The notes under the pieces are model-generated. The model worked only from the letters and a program-made list of their open reading frames with translations, searched no databases and was not told the origin of the DNA. Below, one piece after another: positions 15,859 to 25,240 of a stretch of DNA of 64,000 bases. The stretch is from an uncultured Lachnospiraceae bacterium (GTDB taxonomy: Bacteria; Bacillota; Clostridia; Lachnospirales; Lachnospiraceae): assembly GCA_944381635.1 (NCBI GenBank), contig CALWLY010000017.1, positions 15,026 to 79,025 on the forward strand, in the 5' to 3' direction. The stretch's first letter is position 1. Every line of letters starts with the position of its first letter. Both the position numbers and the translations under genes were made by a program.

Positions 15859-18249
15859 ATGGGAAAACAGATCAAAGATGTGTACATCGTTCATCACTCC
15901 CATACAGACGTAGGATATACCGATTTGCAGGAGACGGTAATCTACAGTCAGATCCACAACATTAAGGCAGCAGTCAAAATCATCACAGAAGGAATCAAGA
16001 ACGGCACACCGGAAAAAGATTTCCGTTGGAACTGTGAGACTTACTATTGTGTAGAACGTTTCCTGGAAGCAGCCACAGAGGAAGAAAAAGAGCAGTTCTT
16101 TGAACTGGTGAAAAACGGAAACATCGGTATTTCCGCTACTTACTTAAACTTTAACGATCTGGCGGACTGCGAAGTGCTCGATGCCAGAACAAAAGAAATG
16201 AAAGAAATTTTTGCGGCTCACGGAATTGATATGAAGACGGCAATGAATGCGGACATCAACGGTATTTCTTTGGGACAGAGAGACGTTCTTATCCGCAACG
16301 GCATTGAATTTTTATACACAAATATCCACTGCCACCATGGCATGTATCCTCTCTATCAGAATCAGAAACCTTATTTCTGGGAGTCTGAGGACGGAAAACG
16401 CCTTCTGGTATGGAGCGGCGAACATTACAACCTGGGAAATGCACTGGGTATCGTATTTTCCAAGAATGTAAATTATGACATGGAAAATTACTTTGACCTG
16501 GATGCGTACAAAGAACCCCTGGAAAATCTTCATAAAAATTTGACCGAAAGCATTGAAGAATATGAGACAAGCGGTTATCCGTATGATTTCTATATTACCA
16601 GCGTATCCGGCGTTTTCAGTGATAATGCACCGGCAAACCCGGCAATTATTGCCACGGTAAATGCTTTCAACGAAGCTTACGGAGACGAAGTGAAGCTTCA
16701 TATGGTTTCCCTTCAGGAACTTTATGCAAATATCAAAGACAAAGTGCAGGATGCACCGGTATACCAGGGTGATCTGAATGACTGGTGGGCAAACGGTGTG
16801 GGAAGCACCCCCTATGTGGTAAAACACTACAAAGAGGCGCAGCGTTATAACCGTATCAGCGATAAACTGGAAAAGAAAACAGGCGTATCCAACCCGGCTT
16901 TAAAGAGAGTTGCCGAGGATAATCTGCTTTTGTACGCAGAACATACCTGGGGACATTCTTCTACAATCACAAACCCTTACGATACGATGGTAGTAAATCT
17001 GGATATCAGAAAAAACAGCTATGCTTCCAAAGCCCATGAAGCCGGAGCTATGAGAAAAAATGAGCAGTGCCATGCGATGGGTGATATTCTGCGCTATTAT
17101 AACTTAAGCGGAGAGGTAAAAGCAGTTTCCTTAAGCAGCCAAAAAGGTGTATATCCGGTAGAATTTTACGTGGAGACAATTTCTCTTCCCGGTGTAAAAA
17201 TTACAGATAAAAAGACAGGAGAGGAATGTAAAGTACAGCTTTCTCCTCATCCCAGAGGAGTACTGGTAAGCTTCCTGGCGGAGTTTGAGCCGGAAGAGGA
17301 AAAAACTTTCCTCTATGAACAGCAGCCTGCTCCTTCCGCAAAACCGTATACAAGAGCGGCTTATGTGGGAGTTGACAGAGTACGCGATATTGTCAACACT
17401 TACGACAGCGAAACCTATAAGCTTCCTTATCAGCTGGAAAATGAGTGGTTCTGCATCCGTTACGAAGTGGGAAAAGGCGTGGTTTCTTTCTACAATAAAA
17501 AATCCGGAACAGAAATGCTTCAGGACGGTGTTTCCACATTCTTTACACCGGTCTATGAAAGAACAGCCGCACGTGGCAATGTTTACGAAGAACGCCGCCT
17601 GCTGGGAAGAAATATCCGCGGTCTGCACGCAGAACAGTACCAGGCAGAATTAAAAGATGTGAAAATCTTAGAGCATGGTCCTGTTTTTGACAGCGTGGAA
17701 CTTATGTTTTCTCTGGAAGGAACTTACCACAGCAGCGTTGTGATTAAGATGTATCACAAACTGCCTAAGATTCTGTTTAAATATAAAGTGGCAAAAACGT
17801 TAAGCGAGGATATTGAAAGTCTGTTCCTGCCTCTGTGCTTAAATGTACCGGATTCTCAGATGTACATCCGCAAAGGCGGAGTAGCTATGCGTCCCGGTAT
17901 TGACCAGCTTCCCGGAACAAACATGGAATACTACATTGCCGATGAAGGTATCGTTTACCACAATGAAAAAGAAAGCATCCTGATCAACACGCTGGACACC
18001 TCTCTGATCTATCAGGGCGAAATGAAACATCATCCTGTTTTACTGTGTGACAACAAAGAGGAAAACAACAGCCGTCCGGTTTACAGCTGGATTATGAACA
18101 ATACCTGGGAAACAAACTTTAAAATGGATCTTTCCGGATTCTGTGAATTCTGCTACGAACTGGAATTGCAGGAAGGAAAAACGGTGGAAGAGGATTTTGT
18201 CCGCATGCAGGAAAATGACCTGGGTATGGTTACTTTCATGACAAAATAA
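15859..18249 (+). CDS. glycoside hydrolase family 38-like protein (alpha-mannosidase-like)
   Basis: N-terminal VHHSHTDVGYT motif typical of the GH38 catalytic domain. About 796 aa with no signal peptide. RBS is AAGGAGGAA. Confidence 0.7.
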   Translation: MGKQIKDVYIVHHSHTDVGYTDLQETVIYSQIHNIKAAVKIITEGIKNGTPEKDFRWNCETYYCVERFLEAATEEEKEQFFELVKNGNIGISATYLNFNDLADCEVLDARTKEMKEIFAAHGIDMKTAMNADINGISLGQRDVLIRNGIEFLYTNIHCHHGMYPLYQNQKPYFWESEDGKRLLVWSGEHYNLGNALGIVFSKNVNYDMENYFDLDAYKEPLENLHKNLTESIEEYETSGYPYDFYITSVSGVFSDNAPANPAIIATVNAFNEAYGDEVKLHMVSLQELYANIKDKVQDAPVYQGDLNDWWANGVGSTPYVVKHYKEAQRYNRISDKLEKKTGVSNPALKRVAEDNLLLYAEHTWGHSSTITNPYDTMVVNLDIRKNSYASKAHEAGAMRKNEQCHAMGDILRYYNLSGEVKAVSLSSQKGVYPVEFYVETISLPGVKITDKKTGEECKVQLSPHPRGVLVSFLAEFEPEEEKTFLYEQQPAPSAKPYTRAAYVGVDRVRDIVNTYDSETYKLPYQLENEWFCIRYEVGKGVVSFYNKKSGTEMLQDGVSTFFTPVYERTAARGNVYEERRLLGRNIRGLHAEQYQAELKDVKILEHGPVFDSVELMFSLEGTYHSSVVIKMYHKLPKILFKYKVAKTLSEDIESLFLPLCLNVPDSQMYIRKGGVAMRPGIDQLPGTNMEYYIADEGIVYHNEKESILINTLDTSLIYQGEMKHHPVLLCDNKEENNSRPVYSWIMNNTWETNFKMDLSGFCEFCYELELQEGKTVEEDFVRMQENDLGMVTFMTK

Positions 18250-18430: not shown

Positions 18431-19300
18431 TTACTCTACAATCGTAAAGGTGCCGTCCGCATGCATGTCATAAGTAGTATCTCCGATTGTTACAAGACCT
18501 GTCTGCACGGCGCCGGTTTCTAAATCAAGGAAGAAAATCTGGTCACCGGTCTGAATGAATCCTTTTACAAGAGTGCCGTCCTGATTGCGGAAATAAATGC
18601 TGCCGTTTTCCTCGAACCAACCGTAGGAGACAGGAACCTTTTCCGTCTCATTTTCAGGACCAGAGACTGCAGTGTTGTCTGAAGTCTGGCTTTCTTCATC
18701 TGCATCGGGAGCAAAGAGAACGATTCTGTTTGCTACAGAAGCAGCGTCAGACCATACAAGGCAGGTGCGGCCTTCTGTGAGATTCTCCAGATATACCATG
18801 TTTCTGGTCAGATAAGGGATAATAATACAGTCTTTGGGAACCGTAAACTCCAGACCGTCCACGCTTGTCAGCAGATAGTTTTCGCCCTGATCTTCCAAAG
18901 ATTTTACGGTAATGTAATCAGGAACCTTATAGTCTGCAGGAATGTCTGTAAGAACCATGGGAGAAGTAGTCTGCGGAGGAAGACTCATTGTCATGATCGG
19001 ACCTACGTATGCGTAAGCAATTTCGCCGGGAGTGATGCTGTCCATACTTACAGGAAAACCATTTACAGCGTCCAGAATTTTTGTATCCTCAGACACATGA
19101 ATAATGATTTCGCCCGGAGTGCACTGGGGGCTTAAGTTGTTGTAAAGAAGAGTATCCTCATCCATCATGGCAATATTTCCCCAGGTTTTGTAAGGGGAAA
19201 GAGTAGTTTCCGGAGCAGCCTGCGCGGCCAGAGAACTTCCGGTAAAGACAATAGCAGCAGCGCACGCTGCCACTGCGGTTTTCTGAAACATTTTTTTCAT
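18431..19300 (-). CDS. secreted protein with C-terminal cell-wall-binding-like repeats
   Basis: Signal peptide MKKMFQKTAVAACAAAIVFTGSSLAAQA. The C-terminus GWFEENGSIYFRNQDGTLVKGFIQTGDQIFFLDLETGAVQTG resembles CW_binding_1 repeats. The start at 19300 follows AGGAGG. Confidence 0.6.
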   Translation of the reverse strand: MKKMFQKTAVAACAAAIVFTGSSLAAQAAPETTLSPYKTWGNIAMMDEDTLLYNNLSPQCTPGEIIIHVSEDTKILDAVNGFPVSMDSITPGEIAYAYVGPIMTMSLPPQTTSPMVLTDIPADYKVPDYITVKSLEDQGENYLLTSVDGLEFTVPKDCIIIPYLTRNMVYLENLTEGRTCLVWSDAASVANRIVLFAPDADEESQTSDNTAVSGPENETEKVPVSYGWFEENGSIYFRNQDGTLVKGFIQTGDQIFFLDLETGAVQTGLVTIGDTTYDMHADGTFTIVE

Positions 19301-19590
19301 TAGAAATACCTCCTGATAAAAATAAATCACGATGCAAAAAAGTCCGGTGCAGAATCATGATGTCCGCATCAGACGGACTTTTACTCTAAATTTACTATAA
19401 CAAAAAATATTAAAAATGAACAGAAACAGAAAATAAATCTTTTCTTAATTTTTTTTCGTATCCTTTTTTAACGAAGAATGAGCAGGGCAAATTCCTTTTT
19501 GAAAGAACTGTCCCTGCTCATTTTTTATCCTCTAAGTTTATCTTTTAACTTTTAATTTATAAGAGAGATTTTGTGACCCGTTTGAATCTG

Positions 19591-20577
19591 TCAGTCGTCA
19601 ATATCGTCAGCATCGTCATAGATATCGTCAGCGTCGTCGTAGATATCATCGGCATCGTCGTAGATATCGTCAGCATCGTCGTAGATATCATCAGCGTCGT
19701 CGTAGATATCATCGGCATCGTCGTAGATATCGTCAGCGTCGTCATAGACATCGTCAGCATCGTCGTAGATATCATCAGCATCATCATAGATATCATCGGC
19801 ATCGTCACGGATGTCGTCAGCATCATCAGCTCCGTCAACTTCTGCTTCCAGAACTTTTCCGCTGAATGCGTCTACTTCATATTCATATTCTTTATTGTCC
19901 AGAGTAAATTCGATTTCATAAACTCCATCGTCAATATCGTAATCTTTTTCCACGAACTGCAGGTCATCGGATTCCAGCTGTGCTTTCAGAATTTCTTCTG
20001 CGGTCTGAGCATTGATGTAGCCTTTTGCACGGTAGTTGTCGTCGTAATCATCAGAATCAATGGCAATAGGTTCAGAATCCATCTGACGTTCGGAAACAAG
20101 AGTGCGGACATCATCTGCAATATCTGTCAGAAAGTGGTCGTTAGGTAAAGCAGAGTCGGGATCCAGTTTCAGAATAATGTTTTTCTCATGGCCATCTACA
20201 GTTGCGTCGAAATAACCTGCCTCGTCAATGTCCGTCACGAGAGAGCGAACGGTTTCCTGAACCGGCTGGCCTTTGTAAGCCTGTGCATCCTGAATAATTT
20301 TTTTACCGTCATCGTTAAGACCTTCGATTTCCGTCACGTTTCCTGCGGAATCGTATTCGATTTCAATCTCCGGATTGACACTTAAAAGAAGAGAGCCGAT
20401 ACTTTCGGAATGATTGTCAGCGGTTGATGTTGTCTCCGGCTGTGTGGTTTCCACCGGAGCGCTGGTGGAGATGTTTGCTGTTTCCTGATTCTGGCATCCT
20501 GTCATGAGAGTCATTCCCATAAGAGCAGCTCCTGCAAAACTGATTGAAAATAATTTTCTGCCTAAGTTTTTTTTCAT
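19591..20577 (-). CDS. lipoprotein with RsgI-ectodomain-like region, PepSY domain and C-terminal (DDADDIY)n acidic repeat
   Basis: Lipobox LMTGC. The segment VNPEIEIEYDSAGNVTEIEGLNDDGKKII aligns by eye to RsgI INPSVQLDVSRSHRVVGITALNEDGASLI. PepSY-like segment DDGVYEIEFTLDNKEYEYEVDAFSGKVLEAEVD. About 11 heptads at the C-terminus. Confidence 0.75.
   Translation of the reverse strand: MKKNLGRKLFSISFAGAALMGMTLMTGCQNQETANISTSAPVETTQPETTSTADNHSESIGSLLLSVNPEIEIEYDSAGNVTEIEGLNDDGKKIIQDAQAYKGQPVQETVRSLVTDIDEAGYFDATVDGHEKNIILKLDPDSALPNDHFLTDIADDVRTLVSERQMDSEPIAIDSDDYDDNYRAKGYINAQTAEEILKAQLESDDLQFVEKDYDIDDGVYEIEFTLDNKEYEYEVDAFSGKVLEAEVDGADDADDIRDDADDIYDDADDIYDDADDVYDDADDIYDDADDIYDDADDIYDDADDIYDDADDIYDDADDIYDDADDIDD
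19594..19830 (-). repeat. 21-bp tandem coding repeat (about 11 units) encoding DDADDIY
   Basis: Period-21 units of the form GTCGTAGATATC(A/G)TC(A/G)GC(A/G)TC. Units differ mostly at synonymous third positions. Confidence 0.9.
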
Positions 20578-20634
20578 AAAATAGTATCCTCCTTTATCTT
20601 TGCCTGAAGAAATGATTTTGTTTTTCTGTTAACA

Positions 20635-20665
20635 GTATACGAAGCATTTTTTCTAAAAAGGGGGT
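20635..20665 (-). promoter_or_regulatory. sigma-I-like promoter ACCCC-N19-CGTATACT upstream of the acidic PepSY lipoprotein gene
   Basis: Minus strand reads CAACCCCCTTTTTAGAAAAAATGCTTCGTATACTG. It has the same spacing and the same CGTATACT element as the site upstream of sigI. Confidence 0.5.
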
Positions 20666-20685
20666 TGCGGAAAAAAATTTTAAAA

Positions 20686-21744
20686 TTAATCGTCGTCATC
20701 ATCCCCATCATCATCGTCTCCCTCATCATCATCATCGTCATCGTCGTCGTCATTATCATCATCGTCATCATCATCGGAATCTGCCGGGGGAGAAACCACA
20801 CTGCCGCCTGCAGCCGGAGCGGAGGGAAGTGTACTGTCATTTGGAGCCGGAAGCGATGAGGGGGCAGGAGTGCTGCCCGTATTGTCCGCAGGCACATTTA
20901 CACTGCTGCCTGCGGCAGGAATATCATCGTCATCCCTATCATCGATGTCGTCTTCTATATCATCCACGTCATCGTCCGTATCATCGTCATCTATATCACT
21001 GACGTCATCATCCATGTCATCACTGTCATCATCTGCATCATCATCGTCCTCATAGATATCATCCATATCGTCCGCATCCTCATAAGAATCGGCCGGCAAA
21101 GGAGCTGAGGGAGTATTGACGGCAGGCTGTGAAGAAGGATTCCGTGTTTCCGAAGAAGAATCCTCAGAGCTGCCGGGGGATACAACAATTACAATCGTGT
21201 AATCTTTTAAATGTTCTTCCAGGTTTTGAGACAACTGTTTTTCGGATTGTTCCTTCCACTGGCTGCTTCCTCCGGAAACGGAAATAACAATCTCTCCGCT
21301 GGGAGCAAGGAAGCCCATGGAAATAGCACGGTCCGCAAGCTCATCAGCTACGGTAGTGTAGTCTTTTCCGTGGTAGTCATAGTCGTCGATCAAAGAAGCT
21401 CCGTCTTCATTCAGAGCGGTAATGCCGACTACGCGGTGGGATCTGCTCACATCGAGTTGTACGCTGGGATTGATCTGCATTTGAATCTGTGCGTAGGAGG
21501 CAAAAACATAAAAGTACCGTTCTGTACCAATAAGCGCAAGAAATAAGCAGGCAGCGGCTGCGAGAACGGTTATGGATTTCGGAATCCGAAGTCCTTTTTT
21601 TCCGGAAGGAGTATCTTTCAGCAAAATTACGTCAGTTACGGTTTGACCTGTCTGATATCCACGGTTTGCAGCTTTCAGAAAGCAGCCTTTTTCATCCAAC
21701 ACGATCACATAGGCAGGATGTACTTCCATTACAAGATATTTCAT
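20686..21744 (-). CDS. rsgI: anti-sigma-I factor RsgI family, with highly acidic C-terminal ectodomain
   Basis: RsgI_N-like N-terminus (MKYLVMEVHPAYVIVLDEKGCFLKAANRGYQTGQTV), one TM helix, an extracytoplasmic domain, then two aspartate-rich blocks that end in a 31-aa near-pure Asp tail. Its ATGA start overlaps the sigI stop. Confidence 0.8.
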   Translation of the reverse strand: MKYLVMEVHPAYVIVLDEKGCFLKAANRGYQTGQTVTDVILLKDTPSGKKGLRIPKSITVLAAAACLFLALIGTERYFYVFASYAQIQMQINPSVQLDVSRSHRVVGITALNEDGASLIDDYDYHGKDYTTVADELADRAISMGFLAPSGEIVISVSGGSSQWKEQSEKQLSQNLEEHLKDYTIVIVVSPGSSEDSSSETRNPSSQPAVNTPSAPLPADSYEDADDMDDIYEDDDDADDDSDDMDDDVSDIDDDDTDDDVDDIEDDIDDRDDDDIPAAGSSVNVPADNTGSTPAPSSLPAPNDSTLPSAPAAGGSVVSPPADSDDDDDDDNDDDDDDDDDEGDDDDGDDDDD

Positions 21745-22481
21745 TGACTGTCACCGCCTTTCCTGTCCGGAGAAATTTTACATAAATGTCCCCGAATGAT
21801 TTCATAGCCGTTTGTATAAGCTATAAGAATGGCAACCAGATATTTTCTGTGTCGCTCAAGCGTCTTTTTTTCGACACCGGTATTATCGGATAATTCTGCA
21901 ATGGGAAGTTTTCCTGTCTGAGCAACGGCAGACAGAACAGCGGAATGCGACTTTGCATAAGCCAGAATTTTTCCGCAGGCCTGAAGGGTGCGTTCCTGTT
22001 TGGGACAGTTATCTGCTACATCGGAAAAAGAGATGCCAAAATTTTGAAGCTGTTTCCCGTATTCCTCAATTTCTTCTGCGGCAGCAGTTCTGTGATGAAA
22101 GGTTTCCACGTCGTTGTGTGTGTCCTCGATTTTATCAAGAAGCGTTGTATGGCCGTCGTCGTCTCCGGCAGGTTCATACAGAGAAATCGAGGAAGAATGT
22201 CGTTTTTCTTTCCGATAGTGGTCAATCAGACGATTTTTGATGTTCCTGGCAGCAAGGGAAAGAAAGTTTCCCTTTTTCACGTCATAGCCTAAAATAGACT
22301 CGTAAAAGGCAAACATGGCAATGCTCAGTTCATCATCCATTCCGTCCTGAGGAAAACGATGAATGAATTTGGCTGTTTCGGAACGGATAAATCCCATATA
22401 TTTTTCTATCAAAGCGTCTGCGGCCTGGGTATCCGTTTTTGCAGCATGAATTAAATTGACAATTTCATGTTGTTCATGCAT
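21741..22481 (-). CDS. sigI: RNA polymerase sigma factor SigI
   Basis: By-eye similarity to B. subtilis SigI along the full length (FGISFSDVADNCPKQERTLQACGKILA; VEKKTLERHRKYLVAILIAYTNGYEIIRGHL). It is translationally coupled to rsgI. Confidence 0.85.
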   Translation of the reverse strand: MHEQHEIVNLIHAAKTDTQAADALIEKYMGFIRSETAKFIHRFPQDGMDDELSIAMFAFYESILGYDVKKGNFLSLAARNIKNRLIDHYRKEKRHSSSISLYEPAGDDDGHTTLLDKIEDTHNDVETFHHRTAAAEEIEEYGKQLQNFGISFSDVADNCPKQERTLQACGKILAYAKSHSAVLSAVAQTGKLPIAELSDNTGVEKKTLERHRKYLVAILIAYTNGYEIIRGHLCKISPDRKGGDSQ

Positions 22482-22515
22482 GACAGAATAATCCTTTCTT
22501 TACATTCCTGTTAAA

Positions 22516-22546
22516 GTATACGCAGGAAAAAAATTTTTTTTGGGGT
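22516..22546 (-). promoter_or_regulatory. sigma-I-like autoregulatory promoter ACCCC-N19-CGTATACT upstream of sigI
   Basis: Minus strand reads TGACCCCAAAAAAAATTTTTTTCCTGCGTATACTTT, about 35 nt upstream of the sigI ATG. Confidence 0.5.
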
Positions 22547-22925: not shown

Positions 22926-23248
22926 TTGACAAAAAAAAATCGAGAGACTATGATGTAAGCATATTTATAAAAAAAGCGTTGACAGGAAGAGTATGGCATT
23001 GGAAGCGGACAGAGAGAAAGGCATATGGTGGAAGCCTTTTGCGCAGGAAAATGCAGGAAGACCACCCTGGAGCGTCCCTTAATCGGGAACGGTGATTCCG
23101 TTATCATCACAGATGAGAGGCATGCAGGTCAGGATTTTGTTTCCGTTGATTTCATAGGTCTGAAAGCTATGCATGCAAGCAGGGTGGAACCGCGTGAACA
23201 GACGTCCCTTCAGAAAGCATTTAACCATGTTTTCTGGAGGGTTTTTTT
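22926..23248 (+). promoter_or_regulatory. T-box riboswitch (Thr, specifier ACC) with its promoter and terminator, controlling thrS
   Basis: Promoter TTGACA-17-TATGAT (22926-22954). AGAGAG box, specifier-loop context GAAG-ACC-A at 23061-23063, T-box sequence AGCAGGGTGGAACCGCG at about 23179-23195, and terminator CCCTTCAGAAA ... TTTTCTGGAGGG plus T7 (23206-23248). Confidence 0.85.
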
Positions 23249-23311: not shown

Positions 23312-25240
23312 ATGAACATCATATTAAAAGATGGAAGTCATAAGGAGTACAGCCAGCCAATGACAATTTTGGAAGTGGCAAAAGATATCAGCGAAGGTTT
23401 GGCAAGAGCAGCCTGTGCAGGAGAAGTGAATGGAGAGGTGCAGGATTTGCGGACAGTACTTTCCGAGGACTGCCACCTGAATATTTTGACAGCAAAGGAT
23501 GAGAGCGGTCTGGCAGCTCTGCGTCACACAGCCAGCCATGTGATGGCACAGGCAATCAAACGCCTTTATCCGGAAACAAAGCTTGCAATTGGACCGTCCA
23601 TTGCAGATGGTTTTTATTATGATTTTGAATTTGCATCTCCGCTTACCAGCGATGACTTTGGAAAAATCGAAGCAGAAATGAAAAAGATTATCAAAGAAAA
23701 TCTTCCGATTGAACGCTTTGTACTTCCCAGAGAAGAAGCAATCAAACTGATGCAGGAAAGAAACGAACCTTACAAAGTGGAACTGATTGAAGACCTGGAG
23801 GAAGGCGAAGAGATCAGTTTTTATAAACAGGGTGAATTTGTGGATCTGTGCGCAGGCCCTCATCTGATGAGCACCAAATACGTAGGAAAGGCATTTAAGT
23901 TAATGAGCCTTGCAGGCGCTTACTGGAGAGGCGATGAGCACAATAAGATGCTGACTCGTATCTATGCAACAGCTTTTGGCACAAAAGAAGAGCTGGAAGC
24001 TTATGAAACTATGATGGAGGAAGCAAAAAAGAGAGACCACAGAAAACTGGGAAAAGAACTGGGACTGTTCATGATGCATGAAGCAGGACCGGGATTCCCG
24101 TTCTTCCTTCCTAAAGGAATGGTATTAAAAAACGTTTTGCTGGATTACTGGAGAGAAGTCCACAGAAAAGCCGGCTATGTGGAAATTTCCACACCTGTTA
24201 TATTAAACCGCAGTCTCTGGGAGACATCTGGTCACTGGGCTCACTATAAAGACAATATGTATACTACGGTAATCGACGGAGAAGATTATGCAGTCAAACC
24301 GATGAACTGCCCGGGCGGCGTGCTTGTGTATGCTTCAGAGCCCCGTTCGTATCGTGATCTGCCGCTGAGAATGGGAGAACTGGGACTGGTTCACAGACAT
24401 GAGAAATCCGGACAGATGCACGGACTGATGCGTGTTCGCTGCTTTACACAGGACGATGCTCATATTTTCATGACACCGGAGCAGATCAAAGAGGAAATTA
24501 AAAATGTGGCAAAGCTTATCGATGAAGTATATTCCCTGTTTGGTTTCCGTTATCATGTAGAACTTTCTACAAGACCGGAAGACAGCATGGGAAGTGATGA
24601 AGATTGGGAACTGGCAACAGATGCGCTCAGAAACGCCCTGGATGAGCTGAACCTTCCTTATGTAGTCAACGAGGGAGACGGAGCTTTCTATGGACCTAAG
24701 ATTGATTTCCATCTGCAGGACTCCATCGGACGTACCTGGCAGTGCGGAACGATCCAGCTTGATTTCCAGCTTCCTCAGCGTTTTGAACTGGAATACACAG
24801 GCGCAGACGGAGAAAAACATCGCCCGATTATGATCCACCGTGTAGTATTCGGTTCTATCGAGCGTTTCATCGGAATTTTAATCGAGCATTTTGCAGGAGC
24901 ATTTCCGACATGGCTTGCGCCCGTTCAGGTAAAAGTTCTTCCAATCTCCGACAAGTATGCGGATTATGCTGAAAAAGTATGCTGCGAGCTTTGCGATACA
25001 GGAATCCGTGCGGAGACAGATATGCGCTCCGAGAAAATCGGCTACAAGATCCGTGAAGCACAGACTTCTAAAATTCCGTACATGCTGATCGTCGGTCAGA
25101 AGGAAGAGGAAGAAGGCAGTGTATCCGTAAGAAGCCGTTTTGCCGGTGATGAAGGAAGCATGGAACTTCAGGAGTTTGTCGGCAGAATAAAGGAAGAAAT
25201 AGACGGCAAAATCCAACGCCAGACAGAGAAAAAAGATTGA
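23312..25240 (+). CDS. thrS: threonine--tRNA ligase
   Basis: 642 aa with a TGS N-terminus (MNIILKDGSHKEY), a class II core and an anticodon-binding domain. It lies directly downstream of a Thr T-box. Confidence 0.96.
   Translation: MNIILKDGSHKEYSQPMTILEVAKDISEGLARAACAGEVNGEVQDLRTVLSEDCHLNILTAKDESGLAALRHTASHVMAQAIKRLYPETKLAIGPSIADGFYYDFEFASPLTSDDFGKIEAEMKKIIKENLPIERFVLPREEAIKLMQERNEPYKVELIEDLEEGEEISFYKQGEFVDLCAGPHLMSTKYVGKAFKLMSLAGAYWRGDEHNKMLTRIYATAFGTKEELEAYETMMEEAKKRDHRKLGKELGLFMMHEAGPGFPFFLPKGMVLKNVLLDYWREVHRKAGYVEISTPVILNRSLWETSGHWAHYKDNMYTTVIDGEDYAVKPMNCPGGVLVYASEPRSYRDLPLRMGELGLVHRHEKSGQMHGLMRVRCFTQDDAHIFMTPEQIKEEIKNVAKLIDEVYSLFGFRYHVELSTRPEDSMGSDEDWELATDALRNALDELNLPYVVNEGDGAFYGPKIDFHLQDSIGRTWQCGTIQLDFQLPQRFELEYTGADGEKHRPIMIHRVVFGSIERFIGILIEHFAGAFPTWLAPVQVKVLPISDKYADYAEKVCCELCDTGIRAETDMRSEKIGYKIREAQTSKIPYMLIVGQKEEEEGSVSVRSRFAGDEGSMELQEFVGRIKEEIDGKIQRQTEKKD

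Follow-up and report, generated by a model that had tools for sequence, protein, structure and literature searches.

Three genes make up a conserved sigma-I signalling module here: the sigma factor gene sigI, the anti-sigma factor gene rsgI and a lipoprotein gene follow one another on the reverse strand (Table 1) of the 64,000 nucleotides that were analysed (hereafter, the window). The stop codon of sigI and the start codon of rsgI share the tetranucleotide ATGA (...CAATGAAATAT...), as the preliminary description of this DNA had noted. A search for terminator-like sites in the gap between rsgI and the lipoprotein gene found none. The stem-loop on the 3' side of the lipoprotein gene has a folding energy of -27.6 kcal/mol (z-score -6.1 relative to shuffled sequences), is followed by UUCUUCGUU, and probably ends the lipoprotein transcript. 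A gene resembling GH38 glycoside hydrolases lies near the module (15859-18249).

Table 1. Features of the sigI-rsgI-lipoprotein module (positions in the window)
Feature	Position	Strand	Description or basis
sigI	21741..22481	-	sigma-I family RNA polymerase sigma factor, 246 aa
rsgI	20686..21744	-	anti-sigma-I factor, 352 aa
SEAL-PepSY lipoprotein gene	19591..20577	-	328 aa
Candidate autoregulatory sigma-I promoter of sigI-rsgI	22519..22546	-	ACCCC-N19-CGTA pattern match
Candidate sigma-I promoter of the lipoprotein gene	20638..20665	-	pattern match and conservation across loci
RsgI Asn92-Pro93, predicted self-cleavage (site-1) bond	21466..21471	-	invariance and structure alignment
Lipoprotein Asn68-Pro69, predicted self-cleavage bond	20371..20376	-	invariance and model geometry
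RsgI extracytoplasmic acidic tail, 162 aa	20689..21174	-	composition
Lipoprotein acidic tail, 81 aa	19594..19836	-	composition and Tandem Repeats Finder
Stem-loop 3' of the lipoprotein gene	19478..19521	-	RNA fold

The sigma factor matched the NCBIfam SigI models over residues 3-232 (E-value 6.8e-52), with a score below the equivalog cut-offs. At full length it matched structures of SigI1 and SigI6, e.g., SigI1 of Clostridium (Acetivibrio) thermocellum (8i23_F, E-value 2.3e-19, residues 17-233), and also the isolated C-domain of SigI1 (6ivu_B, residues 134-230). RsgI consists of an N-terminal anti-sigma domain (residues 1-50 approximately), which would bind SigI in the cytoplasm, a transmembrane segment (around 57-75, positions 21576-21520), a SEAL domain (84-190, positions 21495-21175) and an acidic tail (191-352). 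The profile searches proposed in the preliminary description matched the RsgI middle domain and PepSY, and RsgI_N fell just short of its Pfam cut-off (24.5 bits for a cut-off of 25, E-value 2.4e-5). Judged by these scores, SigI and RsgI are members of a divergent subfamily. A profile of 15 orthologous RsgI proteins matched five solved RsgI periplasmic domains, among them 8hep_B (5e-12) and 8t9n_A (6e-11).

The lipoprotein starts with a signal peptide and the lipobox LMTG-C28 (20577-20494), whose Cys28 was invariant in the family alignments. A disordered linker (29-58), a SEAL domain (59-167, positions 20403-20077), a PepSY domain (188-246, positions 20016-19840, Pfam E-value 8.8e-10) and an acidic tail of heptads follow. 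The AlphaFold2 model had pLDDT values above 85 across most of residues 56-247, and its best matches in the PDB (Foldseek) were the SEAL domain of Bacillus subtilis RsgI (8t9n, TM-score 0.74 on the target) and RsgI2 of C. thermocellum (8hdj). The profile of the lipoprotein family matched 8t9n_A (1.8e-7) and the PepSY structure 9vy3_A (1.1e-6). The wider SEAL-PepSY family comprised 246 clusters at E ≤ 1e-30, and many of these relatives had no tail at all.

The domain common to RsgI and the lipoprotein is SEAL, or RsgI_M, which is known to cleave itself. The Pfam profile (PF23750) matched RsgI at residues 84-190 (E-value 2.9e-24) and the lipoprotein at residues 65-167 (8.3e-16). Pairwise BLASTP of the two proteins gave no match, and the comparison of profiles built from ortholog alignments aligned RsgI 83-180 with lipoprotein 59-165 (probability 98.2%, E-value 4.8e-14), reproducing the alignment proposed earlier. 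Their homology is thus real, as judged by profile methods, which alone detect it. The preliminary description had missed the key mechanistic feature common to both proteins, i.e., the Asn-Pro self-cleavage site. In RsgI, I91, N92 and P93 were invariant in the 15 orthologs, as were the neighbouring N112 and D114, and P93 aligned with the residue at which three crystallised C-terminal cleavage products (8hep_B, 8her_B and 8u9o_B) begin. In the lipoprotein, the motif LLSVNPEI was invariant throughout the family; V67-N68-P69 formed in the model a three-residue turn between strands 61-66 and 70-75 (pLDDT above 90), which is the geometry described for RsgI; and N88 and D90, counterparts of the conserved Asn117 and Asp119 of RsgI2, were also invariant. 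Self-cleavage between Asn and Pro was demonstrated for clostridial RsgI proteins (PMC10328401), for B. subtilis RsgI and for the SEAL-PepSY protein EIO64_09220 of Dysosmobacter welbionis (bioRxiv 10.1101/2023.06.27.546760). From the conserved sites we infer that RsgI and the lipoprotein cleave themselves as well. Since SEAL is a known self-cleaving domain and its Asn-Pro hairpin is kept, RsgI is of the already published B. subtilis type (anti-sigma domain, membrane helix, SEAL, disordered tail).

The same promoter form, ACCCC-N19-CGTA, precedes sigI and the lipoprotein gene. The first copy consists of ACCCC (22546-22542), an A/T tract, CGTA (22522-22519) and TACT; the second of ACCCC(C), a T/A tract, CGTA (20638-20641) and TACT. 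Both agree with the Bacillales consensus ACCCCC--AA-N15-CGAA and the clostridial CGWA -10 element (PMC4711584; PMC10575876). In related loci, CCC[CT]-N18-20-CG[TC]A was found upstream of sigI in 67 out of 69 cases, and the 70 intergenic regions between rsgI and the lipoprotein gene contained 123 sites (background 0.059 per 320 nt); the spacer was almost always of 19 nt. Hence, the sigma-I-type promoter that had been expected for the lipoprotein gene is present as a copy of its own, conserved across dozens of species, and its similarity to the one before sigI suggests that SigI transcribes this gene. A strict motif, scanned over 80 loci (the longest about 12.7 kb), occurred outside the usual sites only in front of two lipoprotein genes, with another gene inserted between each of them and rsgI. 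The unlinked lipoprotein genes of loci L064 and L068 retained the promoter; the exception was L028, where the lipoprotein gene had neither a promoter nor sigI-rsgI nearby. The ACCCC-type form had only two matches in the 64 kb of the window, and the motif preceded no glycoside hydrolase gene in the window or in the related loci. With two matches in the window and no further sites in the related loci, nothing points to a large enzyme regulon in the DNA scanned. A single sigma-I-type promoter form before both sigI and the lipoprotein gene, kept even when the latter is unlinked from rsgI, appears to be new.

A relative is encoded in at least 166 species genomes of Lachnospiraceae, Oscillospiraceae and Olsenella, and the record titles place the hosts of the module, which include Olsenella and other Atopobiaceae, among gut bacteria. 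The order sigI, rsgI, lipoprotein gene was kept in about 70 of the 72 informative loci (those with enough upstream DNA among the 80 fetched; two lacked it). This conserved order also appears to be new.

The RsgI tail contains 65 Asp (40%), 6 Glu, 2 Arg and no Lys, for a net charge of -69. It runs from an acidic block through a spacer of Pro, Ala and Ser to a poly-Asp block at its end, in agreement with the acidic ending already described: the motif ADDMDDIYEDDDD is present in the acidic region, and the last 31 codons (20689-20781), DSDDDDDDDNDDDDDDDDDEGDDDDGDDDDD, encode 26 Asp. It matched no Pfam domain, carbohydrate-binding domains included. The lipoprotein tail contains 47 Asp (net charge -46) in 11 heptads DDADD(I/V)Y, encoded by 11.0 copies of a 21-bp unit (19594-19824, 84% matches, Tandem Repeats Finder), close to the number estimated before. 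The full-length model predicts it to be disordered, with a pLDDT near 48 and without secondary structure. Pairs of heptad units differed by 133 synonymous and 29 nonsynonymous codon changes, when only 10 of the 63 possible single-base changes (16%) are synonymous. The heptads of the window thus show purifying selection, despite the differences in length between strains.

The preliminary description had linked the two tails by the motif DD-x-DDIY. The only 4-mer they share in the window, poly-Asp aside, is DDIY, and the motif is weak on its own, but the sharing of tail types across the family is strong. Among 61 distinct loci, the DYGP-type repeat was found in both tails in 29, in neither in 27, only in the lipoprotein in five and only in RsgI in none (Fisher p 2e-12, uncorrected for phylogeny). 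The fractions of Tyr, Trp and Gly correlated between the two tails (rho 0.44-0.60, confounded by common ancestry). One Gemmiger locus (L060) had tails of different types, i.e., DDDW repeats in RsgI and D(I/V/L/M)Y repeats in the lipoprotein. Median fractions in the 61 loci were 0.31 for Asp and 0.018 for Lys plus Arg in RsgI tails, and 0.42 and 0.006 in lipoprotein tails. Two tails that are always polyanionic, often of one repeat type and under purifying selection in the window, appear not to have been reported before.

[quoted passage not shown] The RsgI tail would bind divalent metals, cationic antimicrobial peptides or polyamines, which we regard as unlikely, and the SigI-induced lipoprotein, with its matching tail, would act on that ligand as a decoy, sink or co-receptor, which we find similarly doubtful; it might then be shed once the SEAL fragments separate. 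The net charges, the near absence of Lys and Arg and the conservation of acidity in at least 61 distinct loci would suit such ligands, but no known family of metal-binding proteins in Pfam matched the tails, and their regular punctuation by Trp, Tyr or Ile suggests more than electrostatics. Selection on the heptad unit and the conserved promoter of the lipoprotein gene fit this reading, as do the Asn-Pro site, by which the lipoprotein ectodomain is releasable in principle, and the gut habitat of the hosts, where such cations are plentiful. However, the tails of a few orthologs (L014 and L017) are rich in Gly, Ser and Tyr and contain only some 11% Asp, and in B. subtilis the tail needs no specific ligand and still functions with a scrambled sequence (PMC9732909).

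It is very unlikely that the tails are neutral low-complexity sequence, i.e., slippage-prone repeats or spacers, with SEAL and PepSY alone doing the work. Strains with identical SigI had from 8 to 12 lipoprotein heptads, so exact length is not critical, and one RsgI allele had an in-frame deletion of 69 residues that took the spacer and part of each flanking acidic run. Yet this deletion joined the remains of the two acidic blocks directly and left the tail strongly acidic. Part of this variation could be an artefact of short-read assembly. Similarly, the repeat unit and its period differ widely between species and many SEAL-PepSY relatives are tail-less, but in the sigI-linked subfamily (Clostridia and Atopobiaceae) every RsgI and nearly every lipoprotein kept an Asp-rich tail poor in Lys and Arg, including 67 out of 67 orthologous RsgI tails. 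The excess of synonymous changes in the heptads, the correlation of tail types between RsgI and lipoprotein within genomes, and the requirement of the disordered RsgI tail for signalling in B. subtilis (PMC9732909) also argue against neutrality. The preliminary description would have been undermined by a lack of homology between the two proteins, a lipoprotein gene independent of sigma-I or tails varying or absent in close orthologs. Homology was found, the promoter is present and acidic composition was conserved in all orthologs examined, so none of these refutes it.

To our knowledge, Olsenella and other Atopobiaceae do not form spores. We give hardly any credence to a carbohydrate or biomass sensor like those of C. 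thermocellum, or to a sporulation or germination lipoprotein akin to YhcN/YlaJ or YpeB in place of a vegetative envelope function: characterised clostridial RsgIs do sense polysaccharides, and a GH38-like gene is nearby, but the tail has no carbohydrate-binding or other Pfam domain and the promoter motif precedes no glycoside hydrolase, while the NCBIfam match to YhcN/YlaJ (E-value 0.006) reached 16.9 bits for a cut-off of 99.75 and the PepSY resemblance to YpeB (5boi) is set against the presence of the module in Atopobiaceae.

The claim that this RsgI architecture was undescribed does not hold, since this layout is already published for the SigI-RsgI cell-wall stress pathway of B. subtilis (PMC9732909; bioRxiv 10.1101/2023.06.27.546760): the same domain order with no appended folded domain, a self-cleaving SEAL with an Asn-Pro hairpin and an extracytoplasmic disordered tail. 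The B. subtilis operon likewise controls its own expression through an ACCCC(C)...CGWA promoter, and its system offers the precedent of a sensor and an effector, PBP1, with interchangeable disordered tails (PMC9732909). The B. subtilis tail is of mixed charged and polar residues, whereas here it is an extreme polyanion; SigI and RsgI_N score here under the cut-offs of their curated families; the bacteria that carry the module are anaerobic, gut-dwelling Clostridia and Atopobiaceae; and the neighbour with a SigI-type promoter is a conserved SEAL-PepSY lipoprotein. We know of no gene for such a lipoprotein at the sigI-rsgI locus of B. subtilis. The biomass sensors SigI/RsgI1-9 of C. thermocellum share the SigI fold and C-terminal domain, periplasmic Asn-Pro self-cleavage and a CGWA -10 element with an A-tract (PMC10328401; PMC4711584). 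In contrast to these, RsgI carries at its C-terminus neither a carbohydrate-binding module nor any other folded sensor domain here, and the -35 element follows the ACCCC form of Bacillales. The lipoprotein belongs to the wider family of SEAL-PepSY fusions noted in 2023 by Brogan et al., which are secreted or lipid-anchored SEAL domains with the conserved hairpin followed by PepSY, some of them, like the lipoprotein, without an anti-sigma domain or transmembrane segment; EIO64_09220, for example, has a signal peptide, SEAL and three putative PepSY domains (bioRxiv 10.1101/2023.06.27.546760). The fusions are stated in this preprint to lack a disordered region, whereas the lipoprotein has one PepSY and a long Asp-rich disordered tail, and the available text of the preprint makes no mention of linkage to sigI-rsgI or of a sigma-I promoter.

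As a whole, the module is probably best explained as a B. subtilis-type RsgI sensor with a SigI-driven SEAL-PepSY lipoprotein as its output and feedback arm. RsgI would be cut between Asn92 and Pro93 and its halves held together by their common beta-sheet. On the model of its homologues, the two SEAL fragments would come apart under a force that pulls or unfolds the tail, a site-2 protease would then cut the membrane stub, and SigI would be freed to transcribe its own operon and the lipoprotein gene from the two near-identical promoters. In B. subtilis, the composition of the disordered tail matters for sensing and its sequence order does not (PMC9732909). The self-cleaved lipoprotein would carry SEAL, PepSY and a polyanionic tail with aromatic punctuation, held non-covalently on a lipid-anchored stub from which force could release them. 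Because the two tails of a genome are alike in composition, and often in repeat type, both may engage one envelope feature.

Accessory envelope proteins are known to modulate sigma/anti-sigma signalling, e.g., RseB (with RseA) in Escherichia coli and the lipoprotein CseA (sigE-cseABC operon) in Streptomyces. They are likewise extracytoplasmic, co-regulated with a sigma/anti-sigma pair and placed to feed back on the sensor, but share no sequence or fold kinship with the lipoprotein, which duplicates the self-cleaving domain and the tail of its sensor. The lipoprotein may be either a feedback competitor or an effector. As the probable output and feedback arm of the pathway, the lipoprotein would be sent to the sites probed by the sensor tail, where it may bring its protein-binding PepSY module, compete with the RsgI tail and so dampen signalling, or do both.

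The three ORFs of the unit all lie on the minus strand, at the positions assigned to them in the preliminary description, and the stop codon of sigI overlaps the start codon of rsgI in an ATGA (see table). We found no terminator-like site in the interval between rsgI and the lipoprotein gene, and RNA folding indicated a strong hairpin 3' of the latter. The next gene, beyond this hairpin and without a sigma-I-type promoter, codes for a secreted protein whose C-terminal cell-wall repeats resemble choline-binding ones (weak matches to the PspA/PspC repeat regions). The threonyl-tRNA synthetase gene is divergent from sigI and has an ordinary T-box leader at its 5' side (Rfam RF00230, 98.6 bits). 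Four other ORFs were rejected as mirror artefacts of the Asp repeats: they read, e.g., 'VVDIVSIVV...' or 'MMMTMM...' in other frames or on the opposite strand.

Coordinates of the features of the unit and of the other elements considered in the window
Feature	Position	Strand	Type
sigI	22481..21741	minus	ORF
rsgI	21744..20686	minus	ORF
lipoprotein gene	20577..19591	minus	ORF
C-terminal end of RsgI, DSDDDDDDDNDDDDDDDDDEGDDDDGDDDDD	20689-20781		
Heptad-encoding tandem repeat	19594-19824		
Strong hairpin 3' of the lipoprotein gene	19478-19521		
Secreted protein with choline-binding-like repeats	18431-19330	minus	
T-box leader	22970-23212	plus	
Threonyl-tRNA synthetase gene	23312-25240		
Third match of the promoter pattern	1053-1078	minus	
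Mirror artefact	19573-20148	plus	ORF
Mirror artefact	19557-19838	minus	ORF
Mirror artefact	20574-20897	minus	ORF
Mirror artefact	20870-21055	plus	ORF

SigI was matched by the NCBIfam SigI models (E 6.8e-52, residues 3-232 of a 236-position model), with scores under the equivalog cut-offs (176 vs 306 bits, and 160 vs 185 for TIGR02895). Among solved structures, it matched SigI1 of Clostridium thermocellum (8i23_F, E 2.3e-19, residues 17-233), the C-terminal domain of SigI1 (6ivu_B, E 2.5e-10, residues 134-230), and C. thermocellum SigI6. Judging by sequence, the similarity extends over the full length and includes sigma-2 and the SigI-specific C-terminal domain found in place of sigma-4, as in members of the SigI family. 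The overlap of sigI with rsgI and a candidate sigma-I-type promoter upstream would fit the co-transcription and autoregulation typical of this family.

The profile RsgI_M of Pfam, which corresponds to the self-cleaving juxtamembrane domain also named SEAL, matched RsgI at residues 84-190 (E 2.9e-24). The RsgI_N profile matched just under its cut-off (E 2.4e-5, 24.5 bits vs 25), and the 35 N-terminal residues are strongly conserved among 15 orthologs. A hydrophobic stretch can be read off the sequence at around residues 57-75. RsgI is therefore predicted to have a single transmembrane helix followed by a juxtamembrane SEAL domain, and its profile matched the structures 8hep_B, 8t9n_A, 8her_B, and 8u9o_B. 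Residues 191-352 gave no Pfam match even at E ≤ 1, so this region has no folded sensor domain resembling carbohydrate-binding modules or glycoside hydrolases. This sets the protein apart from the clostridial RsgI biomass sensors of the CBM type, which have a folded sensor domain at the C-terminus, and contradicts a role in carbohydrate sensing.

The lipoprotein has an RsgI_M domain (residues 65-167, E 8.3e-16) and a PepSY domain (residues 188-246, E 8.8e-10), and its lipobox Cys28 is invariant in our alignments. The homology between its N-terminal region and the RsgI ectodomain, previously proposed from an alignment by eye, could only be recovered by profile and structure methods, in the same alignment register. 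Pairwise BLASTP of the two proteins detected no similarity, whereas the profile-profile comparison of 15 RsgI with 13 lipoprotein orthologs gave a probability of 98.2% (E 4.8e-14). An AlphaFold2 model of the lipoprotein is confident over residues 56-247, and its best matches among solved structures were the juxtamembrane domain of Bacillus subtilis RsgI (8t9n, TM-score 0.74 on the target) and the periplasmic domain of C. thermocellum RsgI2 (8hdj). The family profile also found 8t9n by sequence (E 1.8e-7), along with a PepSY structure. With a signal peptide, a SEAL domain with its hairpin, and a PepSY domain, the protein has the features of a SEAL-PepSY fusion. Two other family assignments were discarded: the Lpp/alanine-zipper lipoproteins (NCBIfam, 16.1 bits vs a cut-off of 43) and the YhcN/YlaJ sporulation lipoproteins (16.9 bits vs 99.75). 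The latter score, far under the cut-off, and the presence of the module in Olsenella contradict a role in sporulation.

SEAL, the central domain of RsgI (Brogan et al. 2023, bioRxiv 10.1101/2023.06.27.546760), is known to cleave itself between a conserved Asn and Pro in a three-residue turn joining beta1 and beta2, and the resulting fragments are held together by an uninterrupted sheet. Force on the extracytoplasmic part has been proposed to separate the fragments, permitting intramembrane cleavage, which RasP/RseP carries out in RsgI pathways, and release of SigI. In RsgI, I91, N92, and P93 are invariant among the 15 aligned orthologs, and P93 coincides in the alignment with the residue at which four crystallised C-terminal cleavage fragments begin. 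In the lipoprotein family the stretch LLSVNPEI is invariant, and in the model V67-N68-P69 forms the turn linking strand 61-66 to strand 70-75. Both proteins also have an invariant Asn-x-Asp (N112/D114 in RsgI, N88/D90 in the lipoprotein), the counterpart of the conserved Asn117 and Asp119 of RsgI2. Since the Asn-Pro site and the Asn-x-Asp are invariant in both, we infer that RsgI and the lipoprotein both self-cleave. Cleavage of the lipoprotein would leave a lipid-anchored stub of 41 residues (Cys28-Asn68) holding the remainder of the protein non-covalently.

The preliminary description assumed that the lipoprotein gene is driven by sigma-I, and the promoter regions argue for this. The motif ACCCC-N19-CGTATACT occurs twice in the window, 37 nt 5' of sigI and 60 nt 5' of the lipoprotein gene. 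Among related loci, CCC[CT]-N18-20-CG[TC]A was found 5' of sigI in 67 out of 69 (with a 19-nt spacer in 64) and at 123 sites in 70 rsgI-lipoprotein intergenic regions, against a background of 0.059 per 320 nt. The consensus is GaCCCCGAAAat...TcCGTATtCT before sigI and GaCCCCGgTTTT...ctcCGTAttCT before the lipoprotein gene, and Olsenella has CGCA in place of CGTA. Published sigma-I elements comprise the Bacillales consensus ACCCCC--AA-N15-CGAA, a clostridial CGWA -10 element, and a -35 element that is either ACCCCC or an A-tract, the recognition of which was seen in open-complex structures of SigI (PMC4711584, PMC10575876). Our motif agrees with the Bacillales consensus, the clostridial -10 element, and A-tract recognition.

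A search of both strands of the 80 related loci with the strict motif gave no further sites, except directly 5' of two lipoprotein genes displaced by insertions. In L032:5020-5992 and L054:4776-5977, insertions of unrelated opposite-strand genes separate the lipoprotein gene from rsgI, and it is the lipoprotein gene that keeps the promoter. In L064 and L068, which have no sigI-rsgI in the available upstream DNA (only around 1.2 kb for L064), the lipoprotein gene is unlinked and likewise retains the promoter. On comparative grounds, these data strongly suggest that the lipoprotein gene is a direct target of SigI. A third match of the pattern ACCCC-N17-21-CGTA in the window, with a 17-nt spacer and lacking the TACT extension, was treated as probably due to chance because three matches were reached by 3 out of 100 shuffles. 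In 43 of the 70 intergenic regions we observed the sigma-I-type promoter twice in tandem, with the copies around 72 nt apart, apparently mostly in Oscillospiraceae (e.g., L003:5820-5990, L009, and L023); the window has one copy. The duplication could have a dosage effect, or the first copy could give rise to a short transcript.

The module is widespread. We found 889 homologs of the lipoprotein in the clustered protein database, of which the best 120 have an identical layout, 255-461 residues, and Asp-rich tails. A HMMER search of 1.84 billion representatives yielded 246 clusters at E ≤ 1e-30, with two architectures: SEAL-PepSY followed by an acidic tail, and SEAL with several PepSY domains and no tail. 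Asp makes up at least 35% of the last 40 residues in 46 out of 150 family representatives. At least 166 species-representative genomes encode a relative, including Lachnospiraceae, many Oscillospiraceae (Flavonifractor, Pseudoflavonifractor, Intestinimonas, Gemmiger), and the actinobacterial genus Olsenella; none of the species-level genomes exceeds 58% for the lipoprotein. The order sigI-rsgI-lipoprotein gene on one strand was found in essentially every one of the 80 loci with enough upstream sequence. The exceptions are L068 and L028, the latter with a lipoprotein gene devoid of both promoter and sigI-rsgI. Clustering of the upstream and downstream genes revealed no fourth gene kept across clades. 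A multi-pass membrane protein of around 229 residues is encoded downstream in 32 loci (e.g., L027:7843-8532), apparently mainly in Oscillospiraceae, and a second, tail-less PepSY lipoprotein is encoded upstream and divergently in 11 loci (e.g., L048:3213-3914). Both are absent from the window.

Both acidic tails were present as previously described, including the block ADDMDDIYEDDDD and the nearly pure Asp end of RsgI. The RsgI tail, from SEAL to the end of the protein, has 65 Asp, 6 Glu, 2 Arg, and no Lys in 162 residues (net charge -69), and that of the lipoprotein has 47 Asp in 81 residues (net charge -46). The reported heptads correspond to 11.0 copies of a 21-bp unit (Tandem Repeats Finder) encoding DDADDIR, nine DDADD(I/V)Y, and DDADDID-D. 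The RsgI tails are Asp-rich in 67 out of 67 orthologs (median fractions of 0.31 for Asp and 0.018 for Lys+Arg), and the lipoprotein tails are even more acidic (0.42 and 0.006). In a few lineages, the tails are instead rich in Gly, Ser, and Tyr and contain around 11% Asp. Trp, Tyr, or aliphatic residues break the acidic runs at regular intervals, and the repeat unit differs between orthologs: DDADDIY, DDDW, DDRYDDDW, ADDVADDWDD, or TDYGPNADGVTDYDD. The tails matched no carbohydrate-binding or other Pfam domain at E ≤ 1, and that of the lipoprotein is predicted to be disordered (AlphaFold2, pLDDT around 48, no helix). A coiled coil or alanine zipper made of the DDADDIY heptads was rejected because the matches were sub-threshold (Alanine_zipper, E 0.01), the model had low pLDDT and no helix, and the repeats of orthologs have quite different periods.

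The two tails of a genome tend to be of the same type. Repeats of the DYGP type occurred in both tails at 29 distinct loci and were absent from both at 27; at 5 loci they were confined to the lipoprotein, and at no locus (0) to RsgI. The fractions of Tyr, Trp, Gly, and Asp correlate between the two tails (rho 0.44-0.60); these counts and correlations ignore shared ancestry. Gemmiger is a counter-example to the sharing of tail types. Neutral drift of low-complexity sequence is an unlikely explanation for the tails. Pairwise comparisons of the 11 heptads showed 133 synonymous vs 29 nonsynonymous codon differences, when only 10 of the 63 possible single-base changes are synonymous. Hence, the peptide unit is maintained rather than drifting.

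The number of repeats varies between strains. Metagenome contigs with an identical SigI (L081-L088) encode RsgI in two lengths, 352 or 283 residues; the shorter allele results from an in-frame loss of 69 residues that directly joins the remnants of the two acidic blocks. Their lipoproteins have 307, 314, 321, or 335 residues, i.e., 8, 9, 10, or 12 heptads, for 328 residues and 11 heptads in the window. Part of this variation may result from assembly errors over the repeats or from their collapse in short-read data. Several database entries (P0128, P0159, P0166, P0211, and others) have long 'MTTMT...' endings that arise when the GAT/GAC repeat is read out of frame, and many contigs of related loci break exactly at the acidic tail. 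The repeats evidently compromise both assembly and gene prediction, and tail lengths in public databases should be used with care.

The preliminary description stated that no RsgI of this architecture had been described. Yet, B. subtilis RsgI has exactly this layout (PMC9732909). Sensing there requires the tail, an intrinsically disordered region in which composition rather than sequence order counts, and the disordered tails of the sensor RsgI and the effector PBP1 can be exchanged and presumably locate the same sites in the wall (PMC9732909). This pair is the closest precedent for the matched tails observed here. The best-supported reading of the module is a mechanosensory pathway of the B. 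subtilis SigI/RsgI type. The polyanionic tail of RsgI would be the sensor tail of this pathway, and the conserved local output of the pathway would be another SEAL protein that cleaves itself and that carries PepSY, a protein-binding module, as well as a matching tail. The match between the tails suggests that they share one envelope target. The lipoprotein might mainly damp signalling by competition, deliver PepSY to a target enzyme, or be shed as a sink.

Two more specific readings were given lower probabilities. The polycationic ligand suggested earlier for a sensor and decoy pair is compatible with the data, and we regard it as a rather unlikely sub-hypothesis. We would also give a low probability to a mechanosensor that is tuned by charge and comes with its own releasable competitor. 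In this scenario, the aromatic-studded polyanionic tail of RsgI would collapse on, or stick to, a cationic component of the envelope or the host (e.g., divalent cations, N-deacetylated peptidoglycan, or cationic peptides), generating the force that opens the cleaved SEAL domain. SigI would then induce the lipoprotein, whose self-cleaved SEAL-PepSY-polyAsp ectodomain would bind the same component and could be shed, closing a negative feedback loop and acting as a sacrificial sink. Co-evolution of the two tails would follow from the need of both to recognise one target. Our analysis confirms the initial observation and partly supports its interpretation, with the B. subtilis-type pathway as the favoured reading.

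The SEAL preprint reports SEAL-PepSY fusions that can lack an anti-sigma domain or a transmembrane segment, describes them as lacking a disordered region, and demonstrates self-cleavage for a signal-peptide-SEAL-PepSY protein of Dysosmobacter welbionis (bioRxiv 10.1101/2023.06.27.546760). The lipoprotein studied here differs from the fusions described there by its Asp-rich tail. In a full-text literature search, PepSY and RsgI were found together only in Brogan et al. 2023. A further literature search returned nothing on acidic-tailed SEAL or PepSY lipoproteins. The sigma factor, the anti-sigma factor, and the self-cleaving domain are already known, and the domain combination is in print. To our knowledge, there is no earlier description of the regulatory wiring, of the three-gene unit as a conserved one, or of its matched polyanionic tails.

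A question in the study of SigI/RsgI is how a disordered RsgI tail produces the force that parts the self-cleaved domain. The module is a natural system to address it because its tail has an extreme and simple composition (poly-Asp in which aromatic or aliphatic residues recur at regular intervals), it has a single local target (beyond sigI, promoter matches in the window and related loci occur only before the adjacent lipoprotein gene), and this target duplicates the self-cleaving domain and the tail of the sensor. SEAL-PepSY proteins, so far just a listed domain combination, would be wired into SigI regulation. The module extends SigI signalling to abundant and poorly studied gut commensals among Lachnospiraceae, Oscillospiraceae, and Olsenella.
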